The notes under the pieces are model-generated. The model searched no databases and was not told the DNA's origin. It worked only from the letters and a program-made list of their open reading frames with translations. From positions 79,579 to 143,578 of the forward strand of contig JAXDLW010000047.1 in NCBI GenBank assembly GCA_034666405.1: a stretch of DNA of 64,000 nt, written 5' to 3'. Positions 46,137 to 57,203 of the stretch are shown one piece after another (position 1 is the stretch's first letter; each line of letters starts with the position of its first letter). The stretch is from Chloroflexota bacterium. GTDB lineage: Bacteria; Chloroflexota; Dormibacteria; DASZGP01. A program made the position numbers and the translations under genes.

Positions 46137-47225
46137 ATGGGCCTGGTTCACTCCGAGATCCAACAGGAGGCACCCCGGGGCTTCCACATGGACCCGCGTG
46201 ACTTCGCCTCACTGTCCGGCTACCGGCTGTTGCGCGGTTTCCCCGAGGGTCGGCTGCTGTCGCCGCCGGTCGGCTACCTGTACGGGCTGCGGGTGACCGA
46301 GGTCGAACAGGGCTCCGTGACCTTCACAATGCCGGCATCGCCCTGGCTGCTCTCGCCTCAGGGGATCCTGTCGGGCGCGTCGCTGGCCCTGCTGGTTGAC
46401 GGGCCGCTGGCGTGCACCATCCAGACCGCGCTGCCGCCGGCGACGCCCTACACCACCTCGGAGCTCTCGATGCAGTACCTGCGGCCGGTCAAGGCCGACG
46501 GACGCCTGCTGACCTGCCGCGGGCGGCTGGTGCACGCCGGACAGCGCCTGGCGATGTCCGAGGCGGAGGTGGTGGATGCCGATGGCAATGTCATCGCGCT
46601 GGCGTCCACCCGCTGCGTGATCATGCCGGCCCTGGAGGTAACGCCCGGCCGGGTTGGTGAGCCCGGCCCCGCTGTCGAGCCGAGCTGGCCGACGCCCCAT
46701 CCATACGAGCGCCAGGTTGAAGGGGAGGTCCTTCCCCAGGAGACCTGGGACCGCCTGAGCGGACTCGAGGTCATGCGTGGCCACATTTCGGGTGAGCTGC
46801 CGCCACCGCCGATCTGCAAGCTGACCGGGATCTGGCCGATCACGGCCGAGGACGGCGCGATGACCTGGACCATGCCCGCCACCGAGTGGATGTCGAGCCC
46901 GGTCGCGGGGCAGCTCTACGGGGGCCTCACGGCCTTCCTGGCGGGCATGGCGATCGATGGGGCCTTCGAGACCGTGATGCCCGCGGGCACGGCGTTCGCG
47001 TCACTCGACCTCAAGGTCTACCTGTTGCGACCGGTGCCGCCCGACATGCGGGACCTCACGGCCACCGCGCAGGTCGTGCAACGCGGCCGGCGGCTGTGCA
47101 TCGGCACGTGCGAGGTGGTCAACGCCGACGGCAAATCGGTCGCGCTGGGGACCGCGTCGGCGATGGTCCTTCCCGGCCGCCCCGCCACGGTGGCGCGGGC
47201 GATCGACGAGGCGTCCGCCGGCTAG
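46137..47225 (+). CDS. tandem hotdog-fold (PaaI/4HBT-like) thioesterase
   Basis: Two repeats each with the ...GxxxGG/L..D... acceptor pattern (GASLALLVDGP ; GGLTAFLAGMAIDGA). ATG 46137, at the end of the spurious 1007-aa ORF. Confidence 0.65.
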   Translation: MGLVHSEIQQEAPRGFHMDPRDFASLSGYRLLRGFPEGRLLSPPVGYLYGLRVTEVEQGSVTFTMPASPWLLSPQGILSGASLALLVDGPLACTIQTALPPATPYTTSELSMQYLRPVKADGRLLTCRGRLVHAGQRLAMSEAEVVDADGNVIALASTRCVIMPALEVTPGRVGEPGPAVEPSWPTPHPYERQVEGEVLPQETWDRLSGLEVMRGHISGELPPPPICKLTGIWPITAEDGAMTWTMPATEWMSSPVAGQLYGGLTAFLAGMAIDGAFETVMPAGTAFASLDLKVYLLRPVPPDMRDLTATAQVVQRGRRLCIGTCEVVNADGKSVALGTASAMVLPGRPATVARAIDEASAG

Positions 47226-47226
47226 G

Positions 47227-49116
47227 TCAGCGTCGGCCCAGGCGCCTGCGCACCAACAGCGCCGGGGTAGCGATCAAAACGAGGGCCAGCACCACGCCCG
47301 CGGCCACCACGGCAGCCCCCGCGGGACCGCCCGCGGATGTTAACGGCAGGATCGATGGGCTGGGGCTGGGCGCGGCCGCGACCGGGCAGTACGGGTTCGC
47401 CGGTACACCGGCACAGGGGTCCGGCATTGTGGGCGTGACGGCGGCGCTCAGTGTGTAGCTCAGTGGCAGGAAGCAAACCCCGGCGCCCTCGTCGCCAACC
47501 AGCTGGGCCGGCGGCGTGCACTGGCGGTCGCGCGGCTGGTAGCTGGTTGCCGGGACCTCGGGGCAGGGTGGCAAGGCGCTGACGATGAGGCTCTGGGCCC
47601 CGGTGGCGCAGACGATCTGGCCCGTGTTGGCCGCGTCGCTGTTGGTCACCCCGACGACGCAGGGGGTGCTCTCGAGCGTCGGAGGGTCGGTCGTGAGAGT
47701 GCCCCCAGTGTTGGTGTCACTGCTGAAGCAGTTGGGGTCGGGCGCGGAGCCTACGGTGTCGCTGGGGGCCTTCGCAGCGCCGCTGGCCTGGTTGTAGATG
47801 TCGCCGTTGCTGGGGTTCGCTGGGCTGGCGAAGTTGCCATTGTTGGTGAAGACGTTGTGAGCGATGTAGTTGCCGAGCGACAGGTAGGTGCAGACCTCGC
47901 CCGGCGACGGCACGTTGTTGTCGATGCCACCACCGCACGCTGCGAGCCCGCTCTCCGGGTCGGGAAAGTCGTGCGTGACGATGCCCCACGACCCGTTGTT
48001 GGCGATGCGGTTGCCGATGACGCTGATGTGCTGGGTCGCGACCAGCTCGATCCCCGTGCCGACCGCGGAGACCGCTGTCAGGCCCGAACCAGGCGTGTTG
48101 CCGTTGTTGTTGTCGTGGATGTAGTTGTTGTAGATCACGTAGCAGCTGTTGGGCCCGGCCGCGATTCCCCCCAGCGTCGGGGAGGTCGACGGCGAGACAC
48201 ACTGCCCGTACTCCGGTGAGGGCGCGTCGTCGTTGTTCTGGGCGTTCGACACCAGCCCCGTGCGGTTGAGGTCCCACTCCCCGTTCTCCACCAGGAAATT
48301 GCCCCCGGCGTTGGTGCTGGACAGGCCGAGCGCGCTGTTCTCCGCGTGGGGATGGTCAAGCACCATGTTGCAGTTGCGACAGGCGCCGACGTAATACGCG
48401 GAGTCGCGCATGTTGCTGGCATAGGAGTGGTCGATGAGCCCGGGGCCGGTCTCATTGCTGGTGAAGATGCCGTAACCCGCGGATGGCGACGTCGAGTCCT
48501 TGTAGTACGTGGAGGTGCCGGTGATGTAGTCGCCCTTGATGGCCATCGGGATCGAGGTACCACTGCCGTCGCCGCCGTTCCACCAGATCTCGTTGTCGAG
48601 GTAGTTGCAGACGGTGAGGTTCTCCACCGACACCCCGCTGGCCTTGTAGACCATGATCCCCTGGCGGTTGTGCATCGTGCTGTCCGTGAACTGGACCTGC
48701 GCGCCCTGGAGCGCCGGCGTCTGCGAACACGCCACGCTGCCCGCGGCGGCCGTTCCCTTCGGTTCAGTGGCCGAGAGGTTGGTGCCGTCAACGATCACGG
48801 TGTCGCGGTTCATGCCTCGAATGTGGATTCCCGGGGTGGACACCAGCACCCCCGCAGGCTGGACGTCGCCGGCGTTCGGACTGAATCCCTTCTCGTGGTA
48901 GACGCCAGGGGCGATCAGGACCCAGTCGCCAGTCTGGGCGTGGAACACCGCGTCCTGGATGCTGGTGTACTGCGCACCCGGGGTGCCGGCCGGGCCGACC
49001 AGCAGGACATTCGGGCCGGCAGCCATAGGTGCGGCTGGGAAGGCGAACGCGCCGAGCACGCAGGCAATGACAAGCGCGCCGGCGCGCGCCGCGCTCCGTG
49101 TGTGGGTCAACCTCAT
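47227..49116 (-). CDS. right-handed parallel beta-helix (PbH1/NosD-like) exported protein with C-terminal membrane anchor
   Basis: Signal peptide. Repeated N/G-rich beta-helix rungs (HAENSALGLSSTNAGG, YIHDNNNGN, IGNRIANNG). C-terminal hydrophobic helix plus RRRLGRR. ATG 49116 overlaps the upstream stop by 4 bp. Confidence 0.65.
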   Translation of the reverse strand: MRLTHTRSAARAGALVIACVLGAFAFPAAPMAAGPNVLLVGPAGTPGAQYTSIQDAVFHAQTGDWVLIAPGVYHEKGFSPNAGDVQPAGVLVSTPGIHIRGMNRDTVIVDGTNLSATEPKGTAAAGSVACSQTPALQGAQVQFTDSTMHNRQGIMVYKASGVSVENLTVCNYLDNEIWWNGGDGSGTSIPMAIKGDYITGTSTYYKDSTSPSAGYGIFTSNETGPGLIDHSYASNMRDSAYYVGACRNCNMVLDHPHAENSALGLSSTNAGGNFLVENGEWDLNRTGLVSNAQNNDDAPSPEYGQCVSPSTSPTLGGIAAGPNSCYVIYNNYIHDNNNGNTPGSGLTAVSAVGTGIELVATQHISVIGNRIANNGSWGIVTHDFPDPESGLAACGGGIDNNVPSPGEVCTYLSLGNYIAHNVFTNNGNFASPANPSNGDIYNQASGAAKAPSDTVGSAPDPNCFSSDTNTGGTLTTDPPTLESTPCVVGVTNSDAANTGQIVCATGAQSLIVSALPPCPEVPATSYQPRDRQCTPPAQLVGDEGAGVCFLPLSYTLSAAVTPTMPDPCAGVPANPYCPVAAAPSPSPSILPLTSAGGPAGAAVVAAGVVLALVLIATPALLVRRRLGRR

Positions 49117-50699
49117 CCTCCTGGTGGCGGGAAGTTGGCGCCGTGTACCGGCATCCATGTATGACGCCAGTATCCCAGTGCCGCGCCAATCAGGAGGAAC
49201 AGCGCGGCGACCCCCATCGCCGTCGCGGCATACCCGTTGACGTCGGGTTGGGCGGCGGGCGCGTCCACCGTCAGGTTGCTGCGCTGGAGATTGGCCAGCG
49301 CGTCGCGCATCGCCTGCCGGACGTCATCGACCGTCGGCTGCTGGCGGAGGCCGGCGTCGACCGAGGCCAGGCTGGTGACCGAGGCGTACCCGTCTGGCGC
49401 CGACTGCTGACGGGTCGCCGGGACCACGTTGGCCGGCGGTGCGGCGACCGCCGCGGCCTTGGCCTGGCCGCATCCCGGGGGCGCGCCCACGCACGGGTCG
49501 GGCATCGTCGATTGAGGACCGGGCTTGGGCTGCTTGGTCTCGGACTTGGGGTCGGTGATACCAGCCGCGCCGAGCGCGGTCCGGATGGCGACGACAGGGT
49601 CGCCACCGACCGGCGCCGAGACCGGGCCGCAGGAGTTTGCCTGCTCCAGCGTGGGGGGGTCCAGCGTCGCGGGCTTGCCGTTATCGGTGTTCTCCTCGAA
49701 GCAATTGTTGGCACCGATCCCGTCCCAGCCAACGTCGGCATCGCCCGAGTTGGAGATATCGTTGAACTGGACCTGGTTGCCCACGGTTGGAGTGATCAGG
49801 TAGTGCAGGACGATCCCGTAGTGCGATTGGTTACGCACCTTGTTGTGGATCACCTGGTTGTTCCACCCCCCCGCGATCTCGATGCCCATGCCGATGGGCG
49901 CGCTGAGCGGCCCGATCTGGAACGTGCTGGGCGCGGAGGCGTTCTGGTTGTCATGGACATAGTTGTTGGTGATCACGTTGCCCACCTTGCCTCCCTGCGG
50001 GGCGTCGTCCTCACTGGTCAGGGTGTTGGGCACGATCCCGGCAACATTGTTGTTCCACTCGGAGTCCTTGATCAGGATGCCGCCGGCGTTGGTGCCCGAG
50101 TAGCCGAGCCCGTTGTTCTCCGCGTGGACATCGGTGATCACGGCCTTGCAGTCGAAGCAGGCGCCGATGTAGAACCCTGAGTCACCATTGCCCGAGCCGT
50201 ATGAGTAGCTCATCTCACCTAGGGTTGAGCGGAACGCGTAGACGCCGTACTCGGTGTTGTCAAAGGCCGTCAGGAAGGATCCCTTGAAGCCGGTTACCTT
50301 GTCCCACTCAAAGCCGTTTGCGGTGTAGTCGCGGGCCGTCATGTTCGACAGTTCCACGTAGTTCGCCCCGTTGACATAGAAGGCGTTGTCGAGCTTCTTG
50401 TCGCCCTCGAAGATGACCGTGTTGCGGTCGACACCGCGGATCGTCAGGTATGGCGTGGTGACCTGGATTGCCTCGTGGTACGTACCCGGGCCGATCAGCA
50501 CGAGGTCGTGCTCTTGCGCCGCCTGGACCGCGGCTCCGACCGAGGAATAGTCCTGCGGGACCCGCAGGACCCGGCCGGGTGTCGCCGCCCGCGTGGGCAC
50601 CAGCGCGAGCGATGAGATCGCCGCCAGGAGTCCCAGCACGGCAAGCGCACGCACCGCCCGCAGCGAGGTCAATGCCGTCATCGCGCCCGTCATCGTCAT
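49113..50699 (-). CDS. right-handed parallel beta-helix exported protein (paralog) with C-terminal TM helix
   Basis: Shares the AENNGLGYSGTNAGG and YVHDNQN motifs with the downstream paralog. Signal peptide. 4-bp overlaps at both ends. Confidence 0.65.
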   Translation of the reverse strand: MTMTGAMTALTSLRAVRALAVLGLLAAISSLALVPTRAATPGRVLRVPQDYSSVGAAVQAAQEHDLVLIGPGTYHEAIQVTTPYLTIRGVDRNTVIFEGDKKLDNAFYVNGANYVELSNMTARDYTANGFEWDKVTGFKGSFLTAFDNTEYGVYAFRSTLGEMSYSYGSGNGDSGFYIGACFDCKAVITDVHAENNGLGYSGTNAGGILIKDSEWNNNVAGIVPNTLTSEDDAPQGGKVGNVITNNYVHDNQNASAPSTFQIGPLSAPIGMGIEIAGGWNNQVIHNKVRNQSHYGIVLHYLITPTVGNQVQFNDISNSGDADVGWDGIGANNCFEENTDNGKPATLDPPTLEQANSCGPVSAPVGGDPVVAIRTALGAAGITDPKSETKQPKPGPQSTMPDPCVGAPPGCGQAKAAAVAAPPANVVPATRQQSAPDGYASVTSLASVDAGLRQQPTVDDVRQAMRDALANLQRSNLTVDAPAAQPDVNGYAATAMGVAALFLLIGAALGYWRHTWMPVHGANFPPPGG

Positions 50700-51466
50700 C
50701 GCGATCGCCCGAGACGAATGGGGGGACCGAACCAGGCCAGGCCGAACAGGAGCGCCGAGACCACCAGCGCGGCGCCGGTGGCGACCAGGACCCAGGGCGC
50801 GGTGCCGGAGGCCCTGGTCTTGACCACGACGTTGGGGCGCAGGTCGATGCCCACGAGTGAATCCTTGACCGCCTGGCCGGTGGAGACCGTGTCGGATGCG
50901 GCGCCGCTCGCGCTCGACGCCGGCGTGTTGCCACCCGAGGCCGGCTTGGCCGTCGTCGTGCGGCTCGAAGTCGTGCCGGCGGAGCCTGGCGTGGCGGCCG
51001 TGGTGCCGGCCGTCGTTCCGCCTCCCGACCCCCCTCCACCACTTCCCGACCCCGGGCTGCTGCCCCCTCCGCTGCTCGACGGGGGCTGCACGTCACCGCT
51101 GACGACAACCTGGCCCTTCATGCTCGGGTGGATGCTGCAGATGTAGTTGTAGGTGCCCGAGTACTGGAAGGTGAATGACTCCGACTGGCCGCTGGACACC
51201 GCCCTGCCCCCGTTGATGATCATCGCCACCGGGCAGTTGGGGGGCCCGCCACAGTAGGCGTTATGGCCGGCATTGGGATCGCGGTTGGTCCACGTCACCG
51301 TGTTCCCCGGGTCGACGGACACGGGGCTGGGGCTGAACCCGCCGCTGACGCCGGTGATGTTCACGCCCTGGTCGGCCGCGAGGACCGGCAGGCTGAAGAG
51401 AAGGCTGGATGCCGCCAGCAATCCCAGAACCAGCCCCGCCCTCTTCGCGATGGCCTGGTTATGCAC
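50696..51466 (-). CDS. cupredoxin (type-1 blue copper) domain protein with Gly/Ser/Thr linker and C-terminal membrane anchor
   Basis: Signal peptide. Copper ligands H...C..H....M appear as YICSIHPSMKG. Plastocyanin-like ~100 aa domain, then a GS-rich linker, a TM helix and an RLGRSR tail. Confidence 0.7.
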   Translation of the reverse strand: MHNQAIAKRAGLVLGLLAASSLLFSLPVLAADQGVNITGVSGGFSPSPVSVDPGNTVTWTNRDPNAGHNAYCGGPPNCPVAMIINGGRAVSSGQSESFTFQYSGTYNYICSIHPSMKGQVVVSGDVQPPSSSGGGSSPGSGSGGGGSGGGTTAGTTAATPGSAGTTSSRTTTAKPASGGNTPASSASGAASDTVSTGQAVKDSLVGIDLRPNVVVKTRASGTAPWVLVATGAALVVSALLFGLAWFGPPIRLGRSR

Positions 51467-51533
51467 CCTTCACTCCTGCTCCCGCTTCAGTGAGCGTCAG
51501 TCTACGTCACCAAATCCACGCCCGGCGAGCCGG

Positions 51534-52349
51534 TCAGGGGGTCGCCGCCCCCGCGTTGAGGACGTCACCGCACGTGAGGAGGGCGTACTGACCCTGGTCG
51601 TCCAGGCCTGGCCCGTGGTGAATCGCGACATACCGCTCGCCGTACTTGATCCCGTCCGACTGGGGTATCTCGGTGGTGGCCTCAGCCTTCCCGGTGGCAT
51701 CGGCCACCAGCACGTTCAGGACCTCACGGACCGGGCCTTCGTTCAGGCACTGACCGACGTGCAGGTGGTTCGGGTGGCGGGTCCCCGGTTCGAGGCCCGA
51801 GGCCCGCACCCGCACAGTCATCACCCGCGTCGCCCGGTCGTAGCTGATGTGCACGGTCGCCGCCGTCGCCGCATAGGCGGCTGCCGGGGCCAGCTCGGTG
51901 CGCGCACCACCGGTCACGGCGGCACACGCCAGGGGAGACAGCTCAGCCGGCGCCTGGCTCCCAGGCCCGACGGCGACGGAAATGCCCCAGGACAGCAGGG
52001 ATCCATCGAGCGCGCCGGGGCGCCCCGGCAACGCGACGCGAAGGTCGCCCGTTGCGGTTCCCGCCGCGTCGGCGCGCAGTAGCCCGACGGGCATCGGCGG
52101 CGAGCCACAACCGGCCTGGCCGACCTCCAGCGGGTGGACGCTCGACGGCTGCAGGCCGTGGACCGCGTAGCGCAGGCTGGTCCCATCCGGGTCGGTCAAG
52201 AGCTCCACGGTTCCGAGCGGTTGGTGCCCCATCCTGGGGTCCGCCTGGTCGACCACAAGAGGCACTGCGGGGGCGGAACCACAAGCCGCCATGACCAGGA
52301 TCGACAGGCCGGCCACGATGGTCGCCACGCGGCGCGCGGCCGCGGTCAC
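51534..52349 (-). CDS. tandem CHRD-domain lipoprotein
   Basis: GTG start overlapping the CapA stop (GTGA). Signal/lipobox ...LSILVMAACGS. Second repeat NHLHVGQCLNEGPVREVL matches the CHRD AHIH.G..G.NGPV motif. First repeat is degenerate (HPLEVGQAGCGSPP). Confidence 0.5.
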   Translation of the reverse strand: MTAAARRVATIVAGLSILVMAACGSAPAVPLVVDQADPRMGHQPLGTVELLTDPDGTSLRYAVHGLQPSSVHPLEVGQAGCGSPPMPVGLLRADAAGTATGDLRVALPGRPGALDGSLLSWGISVAVGPGSQAPAELSPLACAAVTGGARTELAPAAAYAATAATVHISYDRATRVMTVRVRASGLEPGTRHPNHLHVGQCLNEGPVREVLNVLVADATGKAEATTEIPQSDGIKYGERYVAIHHGPGLDDQGQYALLTCGDVLNAGAATP

Positions 52350-53545
52350 TGCGGAGCGGGAACCGGGGGTGAGGGCGGGGCCTCGGTGGTGCCCGCCGCG
52401 ATCAGGGTGCTGGAGGTCCTCATCAGACCGGTGACATAGTCGGCGTAAGGCCCGCTGAGGAAGCGGGGCTGGCCGTACTCGTAGATCCGCGTCGGCCTGT
52501 AGGTCACCGCCGCCAGCCTGCCATCCACGAACGTGTACTTGCCCACGACGCCGTCGCGCGGGTCCTCCTGGCCCGGGTCGGGCGTCCACATCTGGTCGAA
52601 CACGAAGTTGCCGTGGGCATAAGTGATCAGCTTGTCCTTGTAGATCTCAACCCCCTGCACCGCGTGGGGGTGGTTGCCGATCACGAGGTCGGCGCCATCA
52701 TCGATGGCCAGGTGGCCGATCTCGCGGGGGTCGTCGGGCGCGATGAAGTCGTGCGTGGACTGGGGGGTGAGAACGTATTCCTTGCCCCAGTGGAACTGCA
52801 CGACGACAACATCCGCGCTGGGGCGGGCCTGGGCGATCTCGCGCTGCAGCTCGGCTCGGTTGATCGCCACCCCCACGCCGTTGAAGCCGAGGAACGCGAA
52901 GCGAACCCCGCGCACCGTCATCGTCGCCACCAGGCCGAGCCCGGTGGGCTGGATCTGGTGTTCGGTGAGCAGCTTCTCTGTGCTGTCGGTGCCGACCGCC
53001 CCGAAGTTGGTGAGGTGGTTGTTGCTGAGGTTCGCGATGTTGACACCGGCATATGCCAGGCCGTCGATGAACCGGGGGTCACCGCAGAAGCTCATGCCGG
53101 TTGGTGACGGCTTGCAGGTGGCGAACAGCGGGGCCTCGAGGTTGATGAACTCGATGTCGCCGCTGCGGAGATAGTCCGCCGTGGCCTCGAAGGGCCATTT
53201 GAAGTTGTTGCGCTTGAGCATCTGCTCATTGGTGTTGCGCGCGGGGATGATGTCGCCGGTGACGATCATGGTCACCTTGCGCGCGTCCGCCACCGCGGAC
53301 AGGTCCGGCGGAGTCCCGAAAATCGCCGCCAGGGACAGGGGCATGATGGGCGACGGCGATGGGCTCGGGCTGGGGGCGCTGCTGGCGCTTGCGGTGGGGC
53401 CTGGAGAGACGCGGGCGGCCGCGGGGGTGCGGCCGCCGAGCCGGCCCGAGACCAGCAGGCCGAGCAACGCGAGAACCAGGACCATCGAGACGCCCGCGAG
53501 GCCGATCTCGACCGGCCCCAGCCGGCGGCGGCGCCGCGTCCTCAC
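52346..53545 (-). CDS. CapA/PgsA-family metallophosphatase-like protein
   Basis: N-terminal TM. Motifs GDIIPARN, NLSNNH, GNHPHAVQGVE, HGNFVFDQ of the CapA (poly-gamma-glutamate biosynthesis) family. Confidence 0.7.
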   Translation of the reverse strand: MRTRRRRRLGPVEIGLAGVSMVLVLALLGLLVSGRLGGRTPAAARVSPGPTASASSAPSPSPSPSPIMPLSLAAIFGTPPDLSAVADARKVTMIVTGDIIPARNTNEQMLKRNNFKWPFEATADYLRSGDIEFINLEAPLFATCKPSPTGMSFCGDPRFIDGLAYAGVNIANLSNNHLTNFGAVGTDSTEKLLTEHQIQPTGLGLVATMTVRGVRFAFLGFNGVGVAINRAELQREIAQARPSADVVVVQFHWGKEYVLTPQSTHDFIAPDDPREIGHLAIDDGADLVIGNHPHAVQGVEIYKDKLITYAHGNFVFDQMWTPDPGQEDPRDGVVGKYTFVDGRLAAVTYRPTRIYEYGQPRFLSGPYADYVTGLMRTSSTLIAAGTTEAPPSPPVPAPQ

Positions 53546-53940
53546 GTCGCGGGCTGGATATCCCTGATAACCAGGCGCACCCGGCCGTGGGCCAGTATGC
53601 GGTCCCGGTCGTCGCGCACCTCGACCTGCCAGAGGTGCATCTGACGTCCGCGCTGCACCGGCGTGGCGACCCCGGTCACCCGGCCGCCGGAGACGCTGCG
53701 GAGGAAGCTGGTCTGGTTCTCGATCCCGGCCGAGGTCTTCTCGGGCATCACGTTGATCGCCGCCCCGATCGACGCCAGGCTCTCGATGATGGTGCAGTAG
53801 ACGCCGCCGTGGATGATGCCCCAGGGCTGGGTGTGGCGCGCGGGGTCGAGGTCGACGATGCCCTCCACGCGTTCGGTGGTCGCGGAGGTGATGACCAGCC
53901 CCAGGCCGCCCTCGAACGGCCCGCGCCCGGCATTGAGCAT
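53542..53940 (-). CDS. PaaI-family hotdog thioesterase
   Basis: HGGVYCTIIESLASIGA...VTGVATPVQRGRQMHLWQVEV pattern. Start chosen at MLNAGRG. Confidence 0.6.
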   Translation of the reverse strand: MLNAGRGPFEGGLGLVITSATTERVEGIVDLDPARHTQPWGIIHGGVYCTIIESLASIGAAINVMPEKTSAGIENQTSFLRSVSGGRVTGVATPVQRGRQMHLWQVEVRDDRDRILAHGRVRLVIRDIQPAT

Positions 53941-53980
53941 CTCGGCGAAGTCCTGCCCCACGTGCGCTAACTTATCAGCC

Positions 53981-54460
53981 GTGCCGAAGCTGCCCAAGCT
54001 CGCGGCCGCGGTGACGGGGGCCGCGGTGGCGGCAGCCATCGCGTTCCCGCCATCGCGCCGCCAGAGCGTGCGGGTGGCGCGGGCGATCATCGACGAGCTG
54101 GCGATGCGCGCCGACACCTCGTGGAGCGACAGGCTGATGCTCCTGACCACGGAGGGGCACCGCACCGGTTTTCCCCACACGGTGGTCCTCGCGGGCGTCG
54201 ACGTCGATGGTGAGAACTATGTCCTGCCGTGGATCGGGACGCCGTCCTGGCTCCGCAACTTGCGAGCGAAGCCCGACGTCGTCGTGGACGACCGCGTTTC
54301 GGTCCACCGCGCCCGGGCGGAGGTCGTCGAGGGACCGGCAGCCGAGGCCGCGCGGGAGGTGCTCCTGGCCGGGTTGCCGTCCCCCCTGCGCGCCGCCATC
54401 GAAAGCACCGGCGTGGCGCTGCGCCGGGGCTCGCCGGCGGTGCGCTTCCGGGCGCGCTGA
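53981..54460 (+). CDS. nitroreductase-family deazaflavin-dependent oxidoreductase (DUF385-like)
   Basis: LLTTEGHRTGFPHTVVLAGVDVDGENYVLPWIGTPSWLRNLRAKPDVVV is the typical DUF385 core. GTG start at 53981. Confidence 0.6.
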   Translation: MPKLPKLAAAVTGAAVAAAIAFPPSRRQSVRVARAIIDELAMRADTSWSDRLMLLTTEGHRTGFPHTVVLAGVDVDGENYVLPWIGTPSWLRNLRAKPDVVVDDRVSVHRARAEVVEGPAAEAAREVLLAGLPSPLRAAIESTGVALRRGSPAVRFRAR

Positions 54461-56336: not shown

Positions 56337-57203
56337 ATGGAGCACCTGACGGTTAAAGGAACTATGCGGAGGGGCGCAGCCGGCTCGGCGGCGGTTCTGA
56401 TCGCCGGCGCAAGCATGTGGCTGAGCAATGCGCCCACCCTGGCGAAGGCCCACGACGAGAACGCGGCGTCCAGCCACGGCCAGAGTAACCATGACGGTCC
56501 TGGCGACAGCAACCGCGGCGATGTCTGGACCGACAACGTCGGGCAGCCCTCCGGGCCCGGTCACGAACAGGACACCCATCTGGCTTGCGCCGACATCAAT
56601 CTATGGGGCGACAAGATGGGTGATTCCGGCGACGCCTACACGATCGACTCGTGGCCGCCGTCCGGCAACAAGTCCCTCGCGTACAGCTCCACCTGGAGCT
56701 ACGACCAGGCCCAGGGCGGGCCGCAGGTGATCTCGGTGATCAACGTCAAGACCCTCGTTGCCAGCGCCCAGGCGGCCGGCGCGGCGCCGGCCAACAAGAA
56801 CGGCTATCACTTCAAGCTGGAGCTGACCCAGGATCCTCAGAAGCACAAGACGTTCTGGGTAAGCTGCCCGGCCCCCGCCCCGACGCCCACTCCCACGCCG
56901 AAGCCCACACCCACCCCCACCCCGGGTGGCGGGGGCACCGAGGGCACCGGTAACGGTGGCGGCGGTGGCGGCGGGACCGAGGGGACCGGTACCGGTGGTT
57001 CGGTGACTCCGCCCAGCTCTGGCGTCCAGGCCGCGACGATAGTGGTTGGCTCACCATCAGCGCCTGCCCAGCAGGGCGTGCTTGGCGCAGCGACCAACAT
57101 GCCAACCACCGGGAGGGTCGCCATCCTCGGCGCGCTTCTCCTCGCGATTGCCATGGTCATCGCCGGTGGGCTGGTCCTGCGGAGGTCCCGCTCCGCCAAC
57201 TGA
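56337..57203 (+). CDS. exported protein with C-terminal sorting-signal-like anchor (NMPTTG-TM-RRSRSAN)
   Basis: RBS GAGGAGG upstream. Signal peptide. PTPTPTPKPTPTPTPGGGG linker. C-terminal MPTTG, then a hydrophobic helix and basic tail. Confidence 0.55.
   Translation: MEHLTVKGTMRRGAAGSAAVLIAGASMWLSNAPTLAKAHDENAASSHGQSNHDGPGDSNRGDVWTDNVGQPSGPGHEQDTHLACADINLWGDKMGDSGDAYTIDSWPPSGNKSLAYSSTWSYDQAQGGPQVISVINVKTLVASAQAAGAAPANKNGYHFKLELTQDPQKHKTFWVSCPAPAPTPTPTPKPTPTPTPGGGGTEGTGNGGGGGGGTEGTGTGGSVTPPSSGVQAATIVVGSPSAPAQQGVLGAATNMPTTGRVAILGALLLAIAMVIAGGLVLRRSRSAN

Follow-up and report, generated by a model that had tools for sequence, protein, structure and literature searches.

A widely conserved cupredoxin/beta-helix unit within a lineage-specific six-gene cluster of Candidatus Dormibacterota

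Several described systems resemble parts of the locus analyzed here. Amicyanin, halocyanin and plastocyanin-like tethered carriers share with its cupredoxin the H-C-H-M ligands and the tethering to the membrane by a flexible linker, and the C-x2-H-x2-M spacing is amicyanin-like, but the known carriers are not fused to a beta-helix and the cupredoxin from the window (the whole stretch of 64,000 nucleotides that was analyzed) falls below the cut-off of all equivalog models. Dehydrogenases, nitrite reductase or terminal oxidases are the partners of known blue-copper carriers, and to our knowledge electron transfer is the sole established function of type-1 copper sites. Cupredoxin-extended NirK and multicopper oxidases (MCOs) likewise carry a type-1 domain covalently attached to a larger ectodomain, and two- or three-domain MCOs adjoin helix loci of the kind described below in three phyla; their acceptor, however, is a type-2 or trinuclear copper site with His ligands, whereas our helix has no conserved His cluster. 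The NosDFY-NosL system of nitrous-oxide reductase maturation, in which NosL, NosD and NosZ form a described arrangement (PMC8457098), differs from our unit, which has no NosF, NosY, NosZ or NosL, and whose helix scores far below the NosD family cut-off, relies for anchoring on a C-terminal helix of its own or a PLDc_N hairpin instead of on NosY, and has as its usually fused partner a mononuclear type-1 site instead of CuA/CuZ. The nearest known kin of the lipoprotein encoded in the locus are Cu-only and Cu,Zn superoxide dismutases (SODs; e.g. the M. tuberculosis SodC lipoprotein, B. subtilis YojM and D. radiodurans DR_0644), domain 2 of CCS and CHRD domains, from which it differs by its two tandem repeats, the lack of a zinc loop and of a Sod_Cu match, a CHRD score just under the cut-off and the loss of the first-repeat histidines. 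The CapA-like protein shares a strong PGA_cap match (166 bits) with CapA/PgsA of poly-gamma-glutamate synthesis and partially matches the CapA-like epimerase MslH, but is paired with a hotdog thioesterase (fused to it in one relative), instead of capB/capC (pgsB/pgsC), absent within 10 kb, or lasso-peptide genes, absent nearby.

At positions 47227-53940 the window contains six ORFs, all on the minus strand (Table 1), with the coordinates given in the initial annotation; the domains proposed there were borne out by HMM searches insofar as Copper-bind, PGA_cap and Beta_helix were recovered, while CHRD stayed just below its gathering score and PF05048 gave no match to bh1 or bh2 at E<=0.01. Four of the five junctions are indeed 4-bp overlaps: GTGA at 53545-53542 (hotdog/CapA) and 52349-52346 (CapA/CHRD-like), ATGA at 50699-50696 (cupredoxin/bh1) and 49116-49113 (bh1/bh2). 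On the basis of these overlaps we accept the suggested translational coupling as real. In the remaining 67-bp gap there is a GGAG Shine-Dalgarno-like element 5' of the cupredoxin GTG start, and we found no promoter-like or terminator-like site; the cluster is probably a single transcript. A second, independent gene call for the window contig gave identical starts for five genes and a hotdog protein of 139 instead of 132 aa. The acyl-CoA ligase, previously placed upstream and convergent, lies downstream of the cluster on the same strand, and the only convergent neighbor is the tandem-hotdog gene, which ends 1 bp from the bh2 stop codon.

Table 1. Features of the six-gene cluster (positions in the window).
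Feature	Position	Strand	Remarks
Hotdog-fold thioesterase	53542..53940	-	132 aa; 139 aa if the start is GTG at 53961
CapA/PGA_cap metallophosphatase-fold protein	52346..53545	-	399 aa, N-terminal membrane helix
Probable lipoprotein (Cys23) with two Cu,Zn-SOD-fold (CHRD-like) repeats	51534..52349	-	271 aa
Second SOD-like repeat, codons H192-P-N-H195-L-H197-V-G-Q-C201	51747..51776	-	Candidate copper-site/disulfide signature with H244 and C260
67-bp intergenic gap, CHRD-like gene/cupredoxin gene	51467..51533	-	Only non-overlapping junction
Type-1 (blue) copper cupredoxin	50696..51466	-	256 aa
Codons of type-1 copper ligands H68, C110, H113, M116	51119..51265	-	C-x2-H-x2-M
bh1 beta-helix protein	49113..50699	-	528 aa
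bh1 invariant C181-F-D-C184 (CxxC) codons, helix turn	50148..50159	-	Conservation in 64 sequences
bh2 beta-helix protein	47227..49116	-	629 aa, Cys-rich bh1 paralog, C-terminal membrane helix

The cupredoxin comprises a signal peptide, a domain at approximately residues 30–125, a Gly/Ser/Thr-rich tether and a C-terminal membrane helix. Its match to Copper-bind (PF00127; 38.1 bits, gathering score 21.2, E-value 2.2e-9), its four ligands and its translation agree with the earlier description of a tethered type-1 blue-copper protein. H68, C110 and M116 are invariant in 82/82 partner cupredoxin domains and H113 is present in 81/82, and from these ligands the copper site is predicted to be intact. 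Assignment to amicyanin (TIGR02657) was rejected, with a score of 46 bits (5.3e-12) against a cut-off of 110.2 and no mau genes nearby.

In bh1 a signal peptide is followed by a right-handed parallel beta-helix (approximately residues 44–350), a stalk rich in Pro and Ala that contains an MPDPC motif, and a membrane helix at the C-terminus. The proposed paralogy of the two helix proteins holds (33% identity, phmmer 1.7e-23): both match Beta_helix at ~1e-6 (bh2 at 8.8e-7), and bh2 shares the signature motifs of bh1. bh1 is a member of a widely conserved family of cupredoxin partners; bh2 is a Dormibacterota subtype, which also occurs without any cupredoxin. Residues C181, C184, C333, C357, Y74, E76, R92, Y125, N128 and W132 are invariant in 64 helix sequences and reach a conservation of 90% or more among 90 unbiased cluster representatives, and the CxxC and the polar/aromatic residues are kept across phyla at ~40% identity. 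The conserved face of the helix combines the invariant CxxC with Tyr/Trp/Glu/Arg/His-Asp-Asn residues; the conserved Cys residues are those of the CxxC and two others, and there is no conserved His cluster. The CxxC and the polar/aromatic residues are retained even in helices without a cupredoxin, the CxxC also in bh2-type proteins of this kind, and in one member (P0128) tandem helices are fused. Long tethers are seen on all three window proteins (cupredoxin, bh1 and bh2), an arrangement that fits a mobile carrier.

As a right-handed parallel beta-helix, the helix is NosD/CASH-like by fold only. bh1 was rejected as a NosD (TIGR04247, 16.7 bits against a cut-off of 300, over the N-terminal 70 residues only), bh2 did not match this model, and the family profile retrieved no NosD chain from the PDB at E<=10, where its matches were confined to the generic cap at the N-terminus of pectinesterases. 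Polysaccharide epimerases and lyases resemble the helix most closely in structure (identity 8–18%), and NosD comes only tenth among generic beta-helix matches. PF05048 gives weak matches in 58 of 90 family representatives at E<=1e-3. The nearest curated model, the parallel beta-helix subfamily TIGR03805, describes a distinct family (bh1 41.9 bits, other members 66–77, cut-off 141.5). The reported absence of nosZ, nosF/Y and nosL was confirmed in the window contig for 10 kb to each side, and none of these genes was found in nine other annotated neighborhoods.

The pairing of a cupredoxin with a NosD-like helix, pointed out in the initial annotation, proved far stronger than the window alone could reveal. 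In a sample of 88 helix loci from different species of several bacterial phyla and Halobacteriales archaea, a type-1 cupredoxin is present in 78 (89%): fused N-terminally to the helix in 49, encoded directly upstream on the same strand in 20, convergent in one, and forming the N-terminal domain of an upstream MCO in eight. Of the fusions, 43/49 were scored by script as N-terminal, with a constant linker of 14–28 residues; the other six were scored "fused_C", which we attribute to phmmer domain limits. The 1.38 Mb of locus DNA contain 84 cupredoxin matches, every one of them no more than 2.5 kb from a helix ORF. The cupredoxin domain swaps partners: in nine Actinomycetota loci it is fused to a three-domain MCO, whose gene and the helix gene share 4 bp. 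A Leptospira operon encodes a cupredoxin-helix protein, PLDc_N, a two-domain MCO and SCO1, and in Gemmatimonadota the cupredoxin-helix protein is accompanied by a two-domain MCO and two plastocyanins. A PLDc_N-type membrane anchor, found in 59 loci, is the third part of the conserved unit, and ~9% of loci have helix and PLDc_N without a cupredoxin. The usual layout outside the window lineage is a single polypeptide with a signal peptide, cupredoxin, beta-helix and PLDc_N anchor. Cupredoxin and beta-helix are thus a conserved unit of hundreds of bacterial and archaeal species, mostly fused (as counted in the 88 loci); in the literature searched we found no function or description of such a fused surface protein.

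The lipoprotein, which is restricted to a few Dormibacterota, had been described as a tandem-CHRD protein. The repeat is supported (internal BLASTP 2e-5) and orthologs match PF07452 (a precomputed match in 4/7 CHRD-like homologs, and an unmarked one in L007), but fold comparison identifies the protein as a tandem Cu,Zn-SOD-fold, i.e. SOD Greek-key beta-barrels; the window protein itself reaches PF07452 only with its second repeat (E-value 2e-4, 22.6 bits against a gathering score of 24.1). Its profile finds PDB SODs only at E-values of 0.045–1, and Sod_Cu (PF00080) does not match at E<=0.01. In the window lineage the first repeat has lost the histidines, and the second keeps the His/Cys signature: H192, H195, H197, C201, H244 and C260 are invariant in 9/9 and 7/7 homologs and presumably correspond to H43, H46, H48, C57, H120 and C146 of SOD1. 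Full membership of the Cu,Zn SOD family was rejected, given three or four conserved His, no zinc-loop ligand set and no Sod_Cu match.

The hotdog protein has the hotdog fold expected for it (4HBT 8.7e-14; TIGR00369 74.8 bits, 5.5e-21, cut-off 36.6), but it scores only 26.8 bits against the 118.9 cut-off of the PaaI equivalog (TIGR02286), so that the label "PaaI-type" is too specific and only the generic TIGR00369 fits. The CapA-family assignment stands (PF09587, 166.4 bits, cut-off 27, E-value 1.1e-48), with a partial match to the MslH model (63 bits against 700); relatives of this protein are named Candidatus Dormibacteria, and neither capB/capC partners nor lasso-peptide genes are annotated within 10 kb in the window contig. 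Hotdog and CapA stay adjacent in relatives without the copper genes and are one protein in P0325/L092, a fusion that sets them apart as a unit of their own; the hotdog protein is probably outside the copper module.

That the six genes form one dedicated envelope system, with CapA, CHRD, cupredoxin and helices acting jointly, we consider very improbable. The four overlaps, the single strand and the lack of a terminator-like site in the lone gap would agree with it, as would the position of CapA next to bh2-type helices even in the copper-less variant. The gene order, whose conservation had been proposed as a check, is kept in five related contigs (identities 56–85% for bh1, 32–52% for CHRD, 71–81% for CapA), but all of these share the flanks (MmgE/PrpD, DAGK, F420H2 quinone reductase, tandem hotdog, AMP-ligase), so that descent accounts for the order; it is not kept beyond this syntenic lineage of close Dormibacterota relatives. 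Outside it, no CHRD or hotdog relative was found within 10 kb of a helix, and the sole CapA-like match among the 80 genome loci (Leptospira L083, ~6 kb off, E-value 2e-15) is weak and taken as chance. L092 and L093 lack CHRD, cupredoxin and bh1 as one block; in the same syntenic region other relatives, L093 among them, have hotdog-CapA followed by two bh2-type helices, and in L001 only the cupredoxin/bh1 overlap is kept. The cluster is a composite specific to Candidatus Dormibacterota, which may be divided into hotdog plus CapA, the SOD-fold lipoprotein with cupredoxin and bh1, and bh2; deep evolutionary support attaches to one piece, cupredoxin plus bh1.

Hardly less doubtful is the idea that the helices are envelope-glycan enzymes (epimerase, lyase or hydrolase-like) or adhesins, and the cupredoxin an uncoupled, co-localized respiratory carrier. 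Sugar-binding grooves typically have aromatic and acidic residues such as those conserved here, CapA-family neighbors in the window lineage suggest work on envelope polymers, and some helix members lack a cupredoxin; co-localization, however, leaves the fusions with a short fixed linker (49/88 loci) and the placement of cupredoxin matches exclusively beside a helix unexplained, the similarity to glycan enzymes is confined to 8–18% identity and a generic pectinesterase cap, and the AlgE-type catalytic motif Y-G-F-D-P-H-E presumably reads Y-G-V-Y-A-F in the helix. An ABC-independent, NosD-like copper delivery is conceivable but still rather unlikely. The helix would take up Cu(I) and load cupredoxin-fold clients, i.e. 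MCOs or a type-1 domain that is fused or adjacent to it, with the SOD/CCS-fold lipoprotein as donor and NosL analog in the window lineage. This would accord with the PF05048 matches, with the constant presence of copper proteins (type-1 domains, MCOs, SCO1) beside the helix, with a lipoprotein/helix/client layout resembling NosL/NosD/NosZ (PMC8457098), and with the CxxC and the stalk MPDPC, which could bind Cu(I). Against it stand the low rank of NosD among the structural matches, the TIGR04247 and PDB results, the absence of a nosF/nosY ATPase/permease for a conformational cycle and of nosZ and nosL, the confinement of the lipoprotein to a few Dormibacterota, and the persistence of the helix in loci without a nearby cupredoxin gene. 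It would also be unusual for a chaperone of 350 residues to be permanently fused 1:1 to a single-use client in most species, and type-1 cupredoxins normally load copper without help. With SCO1, a dedicated copper chaperone, encoded in the Leptospira operon, there is less need for the helix to act as a chaperone.

We tentatively favor an electron relay, a quite possible though far from certain reading, in which a type-1 electron-transfer domain and a NosD/CASH-type helix ectodomain would be held by a C-terminal anchor on the outer face of the membrane. The helix would be the substrate- or partner-binding part, possibly catalytic, through the conserved face with the CxxC, and the blue copper would carry single electrons between the helix site and an oxidase, namely an adjacent MCO if the locus encodes one, or else the respiratory chain. 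In the window lineage, where the cupredoxin is encoded separately and carries a long flexible tether, it could move back and forth between both helix proteins and the acceptor, and the SOD-fold lipoprotein may be a copper-binding accessory. The fusion and adjacency counts, which amount to an obligate partnership, support the electron relay, as do the conserved type-1 ligands and the exchange of the helix for MCOs as fusion partner of the cupredoxin domain, and the residues kept even without a cupredoxin point to an intrinsic function of the helix. On the other side, the structural neighbors of the helix are glycan epimerases and lyases and not redox enzymes, cupredoxin-less loci and bh2-type genes exist, nothing in the helix was recognized as a redox cofactor site, its neighbor genes gave no substrate hint, and we know of no precedent for direct electron transfer from a CxxC to type-1 copper. 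The signal peptides look Sec-type from their N-termini, which excludes cytoplasmically inserted cofactors and so leaves only copper, disulfide or residue-derived chemistry.

A more specific and rather speculative version of the electron relay, which we regard as unlikely but worth stating, is that the cupredoxin/beta-helix/PLDc_N module represents an unrecognized class of extracytoplasmic redox proteins, in which a cofactor-less helix with the CxxC at its reactive center would pass single electrons to the fused blue copper and on to a multicopper or terminal oxidase. The CxxC may then be a redox-active dithiol or a site for Cu(I) or a metal substrate. If this were true, soil Actinomycetota, Chloroflexota, Dormibacterota, Gemmatimonadota, Leptospira and haloarchaea would possess a surface thiol oxidase or metal oxidase.

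The six-gene system proposed in the initial annotation is mostly a lineage-specific arrangement, inside which lies a widespread, uncharacterised surface copper module: a cupredoxin and a right-handed beta-helix protein, with or without a C-terminal membrane anchor of the PLDc_N type. All six predicted ORFs were found at exactly the positions claimed for them in this window of ~69% G+C, and the four overlaps read GTGA, GTGA, ATGA and ATGA. At the fifth junction 67 bp separate the two genes, with a GGAG element ahead of the cupredoxin start; in this gap a pattern scan for promoter- or terminator-like sites returned nothing meaningful. The public gene call for the same contig agrees on where five of the genes start, and its hotdog protein is seven codons longer. 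Pfam and NCBIfam models bore out most of the domain labels: PGA_cap in CapA (1e-48), close relatives of which are named Candidatus Dormibacteria or Dormibacteraeota; Copper-bind in the cupredoxin, with H68, C110, H113 and M116 in the amicyanin-like C-x2-H-x2-M spacing; and Beta_helix in both bh1 and bh2, which are paralogs (33% identity, 1.7e-23). The label "PaaI-type" is too narrow, as the PaaI equivalog model scores far below its cut-off; the protein is a generic hotdog thioesterase, with TIGR00369 above cut-off. Topology was read by eye from the translations rather than with a dedicated predictor, and in this reading the cupredoxin, bh1 and bh2 each have a signal peptide, a low-complexity linker, a C-terminal hydrophobic helix and an Arg-rich tail.

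Coordinates of the gene cluster, its surroundings and the relatives discussed in the text
Feature	Sequence	Positions	Strand	Length (aa)
Hotdog thioesterase	window	53542-53940	minus	132
CapA	window	52346-53545	minus	399
CHRD-like probable lipoprotein	window	51534-52349	minus	271
Gap before cupredoxin	window	51467-51533
Cupredoxin	window	50696-51466	minus	256
bh1	window	49113-50699	minus	528
bh1 stalk region with MPDPC	window	49113-49500	minus
bh2	window	47227-49116	minus	629
bh2 stalk region with MPDPC	window	47227-47560	minus
Divergent gene starts	window	53940-53981
Convergent gene stops	window	47225-47227
Secreted protein with sorting-like C-terminus	window	56337-57203	plus	288
Hotdog-CapA fusion	L092	6001-7596		531
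Unfused counterpart of the fusion	window	52346-53940
Two bh2-type genes	L093	7294-11000
Leptospira fluminis copper operon	L072	9524-13621
Gemmatimonadota copper cluster	L077	139-4042
DUF7350/P19 gene, haloarchaea	L067	8206-9456
DUF7350/P19 gene, haloarchaea	L071	8049-9482

The first gene of the cluster and a divergent gene for an F420H2-dependent quinone reductase start only 19-40 bp apart. Two promoters would hardly fit into this space, and the transcripts may therefore be leaderless. At the other end, a convergent tandem-hotdog gene (TesB-like, 362 aa) runs to within 1 bp of the stop codon of bh2, and nothing resembling a terminator lies between the two stops. Elsewhere in the window, a secreted protein with Pro/Thr-rich and Gly-rich linkers and no recorded Pfam match has a C-terminus made up of MPTTG, a hydrophobic helix and RRSRSAN, an arrangement that resembles a sortase sorting signal.

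As one conserved system the six genes do not hold, since their order is kept only among close relatives (L090, L089, L001/L002 and L007/L009, with bh1 identities of 56-85%). The contigs that keep it also have the same neighbors to either side (MFS, MmgE/PrpD, DAGK, F420H2-quinone reductase, tandem hotdog, AMP-ligase, peptidase S15), so the order is explained by common descent; at L001 the sole retained overlap is that between cupredoxin and bh1. In the same syntenic block at L092 and L093 (the latter a 2.7-Mb contig), hotdog-CapA is followed directly by two bh2-type helix genes, while the CHRD-like gene, the cupredoxin and bh1 are all absent. Both bh2-type genes of L093 retain the CxxC, HDNNN and MPDPC motifs. 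At L092, a Dormibacterota relative, the hotdog and CapA domains form a single protein (4HBT + PGA_cap), and this joining of a cytoplasmic-type thioesterase to a membrane-anchored CapA suggests a membrane-spanning acyl- or peptide-handling unit. The gene content of these two loci, together with the fusion, divides the cluster into three pieces: hotdog plus CapA, a cassette of CHRD-like protein, cupredoxin and bh1, and bh2. For annotation, the lesson is that tight 4-bp coupling and an order shared by close relatives are insufficient to define a functional system.

Proteins of the bh1 family are numerous: 1654 matches came from a word-indexed search, 805 clusters at 50% identity (E<=1e-30) from a full HMMER scan, and at least 593 confirmed relatives from a scan in which each species was represented by one genome. 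Its hosts include Actinomycetota, Chloroflexota (Ktedonobacterales, Limnocylindria), Gemmatimonadota, Bacillota, Leptospira and Halobacteriales archaea, and databases label the members of the module just "plastocyanin" or "beta-helix repeat protein". To survey partners, we translated 88 loci in six frames and compared the ORFs with a cupredoxin HMM trimmed to the domain of the window protein, because envelope-based iteration took in the N-terminal helix cap as well and gave false "fusions". The cupredoxin lies in the same ORF, N-terminal to the helix, at 49 of the 88 loci, immediately upstream on the same strand at 20, in the first domain of an upstream multicopper oxidase at eight and in convergent orientation at one; at ten it was not found, two of these being cut by contig ends and eight encoding helix + PLDc_N proteins. 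Most fusions (43/49) were scored as N-terminal directly, with a linker of 14-28 residues; the other six, scored "fused_C", we attribute to phmmer domain limits. In the 1.38 Mb of fetched locus DNA, every cupredoxin match (84/84) falls within 2.5 kb of a helix ORF. A fortuitous juxtaposition of cupredoxin and helix was rejected on these fusion and adjacency counts and on the exclusive placement beside helix ORFs. The type-1 ligands H68, C110 and M116 are present in 82/82 partner domains and H113 in 81/82. At 56 loci the helix protein ends in a PLDc_N-type membrane hairpin, the window proteins being anchored by a single helix instead. Among the best 90 unbiased cluster representatives, many of them fragments, Copper-bind was matched in 24, PLDc_N in 15 and multicopper oxidase in one. 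One protein (P0128, 778 aa) has two helix-family domains in tandem and so corresponds, in fused form, to the pair of genes bh1 and bh2. PF23509 ("MSMEG_3727, PQQ-associated") was matched in P0047 and one further fused member, replacing or beside the cupredoxin models, and these profile matches may connect the N-terminal domain with the carriers that serve PQQ dehydrogenases.

Further copper genes recur near the helix. In nine Actinomycetota loci an extra type-1 cupredoxin fused to a three-domain multicopper oxidase precedes the helix gene, and at L004 the two genes share a 4-bp overlap. Leptospira (L072, also L083 and L088) has an operon of a cupredoxin-helix fusion, a small PLDc_N membrane protein, whose hairpin is thus a separate downstream gene, a two-domain NirK-like multicopper oxidase (78 bits against a cut-off of 296) and SCO1 (SenC). 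At one Gemmatimonadota locus (L077) the genes after the fusion encode a two-domain multicopper oxidase and a pair of small plastocyanin-like proteins, and together with the fusion they look like a compact blue-copper electron-transfer cluster. In haloarchaea a halocyanin lies upstream of the helix, and the divergent neighbor of this pair carries DUF7350 and a P19-type "Fe2+ transport protein" domain, a hint that the pair may be connected with the oxidation or uptake of metal. The stand-alone fused gene of Actinomycetota has recurrent neighbors (WS/DGAT, sigma-70, hydrolases, AlaX, MFS, EamA), identified by clustering stop-to-stop ORFs with a codon-position GC filter against spurious high-GC ORFs; a functional link was rejected, as these are housekeeping genes and reflect clade synteny.

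The bh1 model is confident, with a pLDDT of 85.5 overall and >95 over residues 44-350. Among the residues invariant in 64 bh1-family sequences are C181-x-x-C184, C333, C357, Y74, E76, R92, Y125, N128 and W132, and H249-D250 is near-invariant beside an invariant N251; conservation of the CxxC reaches at least 90% among the unbiased representatives. Between the helix and the membrane anchor, bh1 and bh2 have a Pro/Ala-rich stalk with a conserved M-P-D-P-C-x-G-x-P and, after it, a second Cys; M399 shows at least 90% conservation across the family, and this motif could be a Cu(I)-binding or protease site. Searched against the PDB by sequence, bh1 and its family profile gave matches to pectinesterases only through the generic N-terminal cap, and the profile found no NosD chains. 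NosD is the closest analogue of the helix, but defining NosD features were looked for and not found. No curated NCBIfam model covers the module, the nearest, TIGR03805, scoring below cut-off.

The CHRD-like protein gives a CHRD match of 22.6 bits, just below the Pfam cut-off of 24.1, with orthologues above. Its two halves are homologous (2e-5), and just seven homologues were found in 5.8 billion sequences. The second repeat has invariant H192, H195, H197, C201, H244 and C260, which we take to be the copper half and the disulfide of the SOD site, minus the zinc loop; a naive pairwise alignment of this repeat with human SOD1 did not recover that register of ligands. In sequence searches of the PDB the protein alone had no match, and the profile gave marginal matches to neocarzinostatin and SOD. 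The SOD fold modelled for the protein (pLDDT 77) is consistent with the crystal structure by which CHRD domains are SOD-like (PMC13382577).

Several lines of evidence argue for a stable working partnership of cupredoxin and helix rather than a one-off encounter: the covalent fusion seen in most species, with its short and fixed linker, the transfer of the same cupredoxin domain onto a multicopper oxidase with the helix gene staying attached, the additional oxidases and carriers in three phyla, and the separate copper chaperone (SCO1) of Leptospira. Type-1 copper sites have no known role other than electron transfer. The bh2-type proteins that have no cupredoxin keep both the CxxC and the MPDPC motif, and since signature residues are thus retained without any cupredoxin, the helix should act or bind something in its own right. 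The explanation that we tentatively prefer, short of an even chance, is that the helix would face a substrate or partner, with the blue copper relaying electrons between it and an oxidase. What weakens this electron relay is that no cofactor site is seen in the helix. Sec-type signals, as read from the N-termini, exclude imported cofactors, and no obvious reactive center other than the CxxC is then left; this might work either through dithiol chemistry or by holding Cu(I) or another metal.

The main rival is NosD-like copper delivery independent of an ABC transporter, with the SOD/CCS-fold lipoprotein as the NosL analogue in this lineage. It would fit the copper-only company of the helix; however, the helix does not test as a NosD-family protein, the ATPase is absent, the lipoprotein is rare and the supposed client is permanently fused to the helix, and we regard delivery as unlikely. 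That the helix is purely a glycan enzyme or an adhesin appears quite improbable. Slighter still is the chance that all six genes work as one system.

Neither blue-copper proteins nor NosD-like helices are new, and the domains are known ones. A full-text literature search found no description of the cupredoxin/beta-helix/PLDc_N module, and in the literature searched a fixed partnership of a blue-copper protein with a NosD-like helix, in the absence of an ABC transporter or nitrous-oxide reductase, is undescribed. The module is abundant and spans bacteria and archaea, and it is well worth experimental work. Its role, once known, would give a function to a large surface copper family in poorly understood soil phyla, among them Dormibacterota and Ktedonobacteria, and could reveal what NosD-type helices do outside the Nos system.
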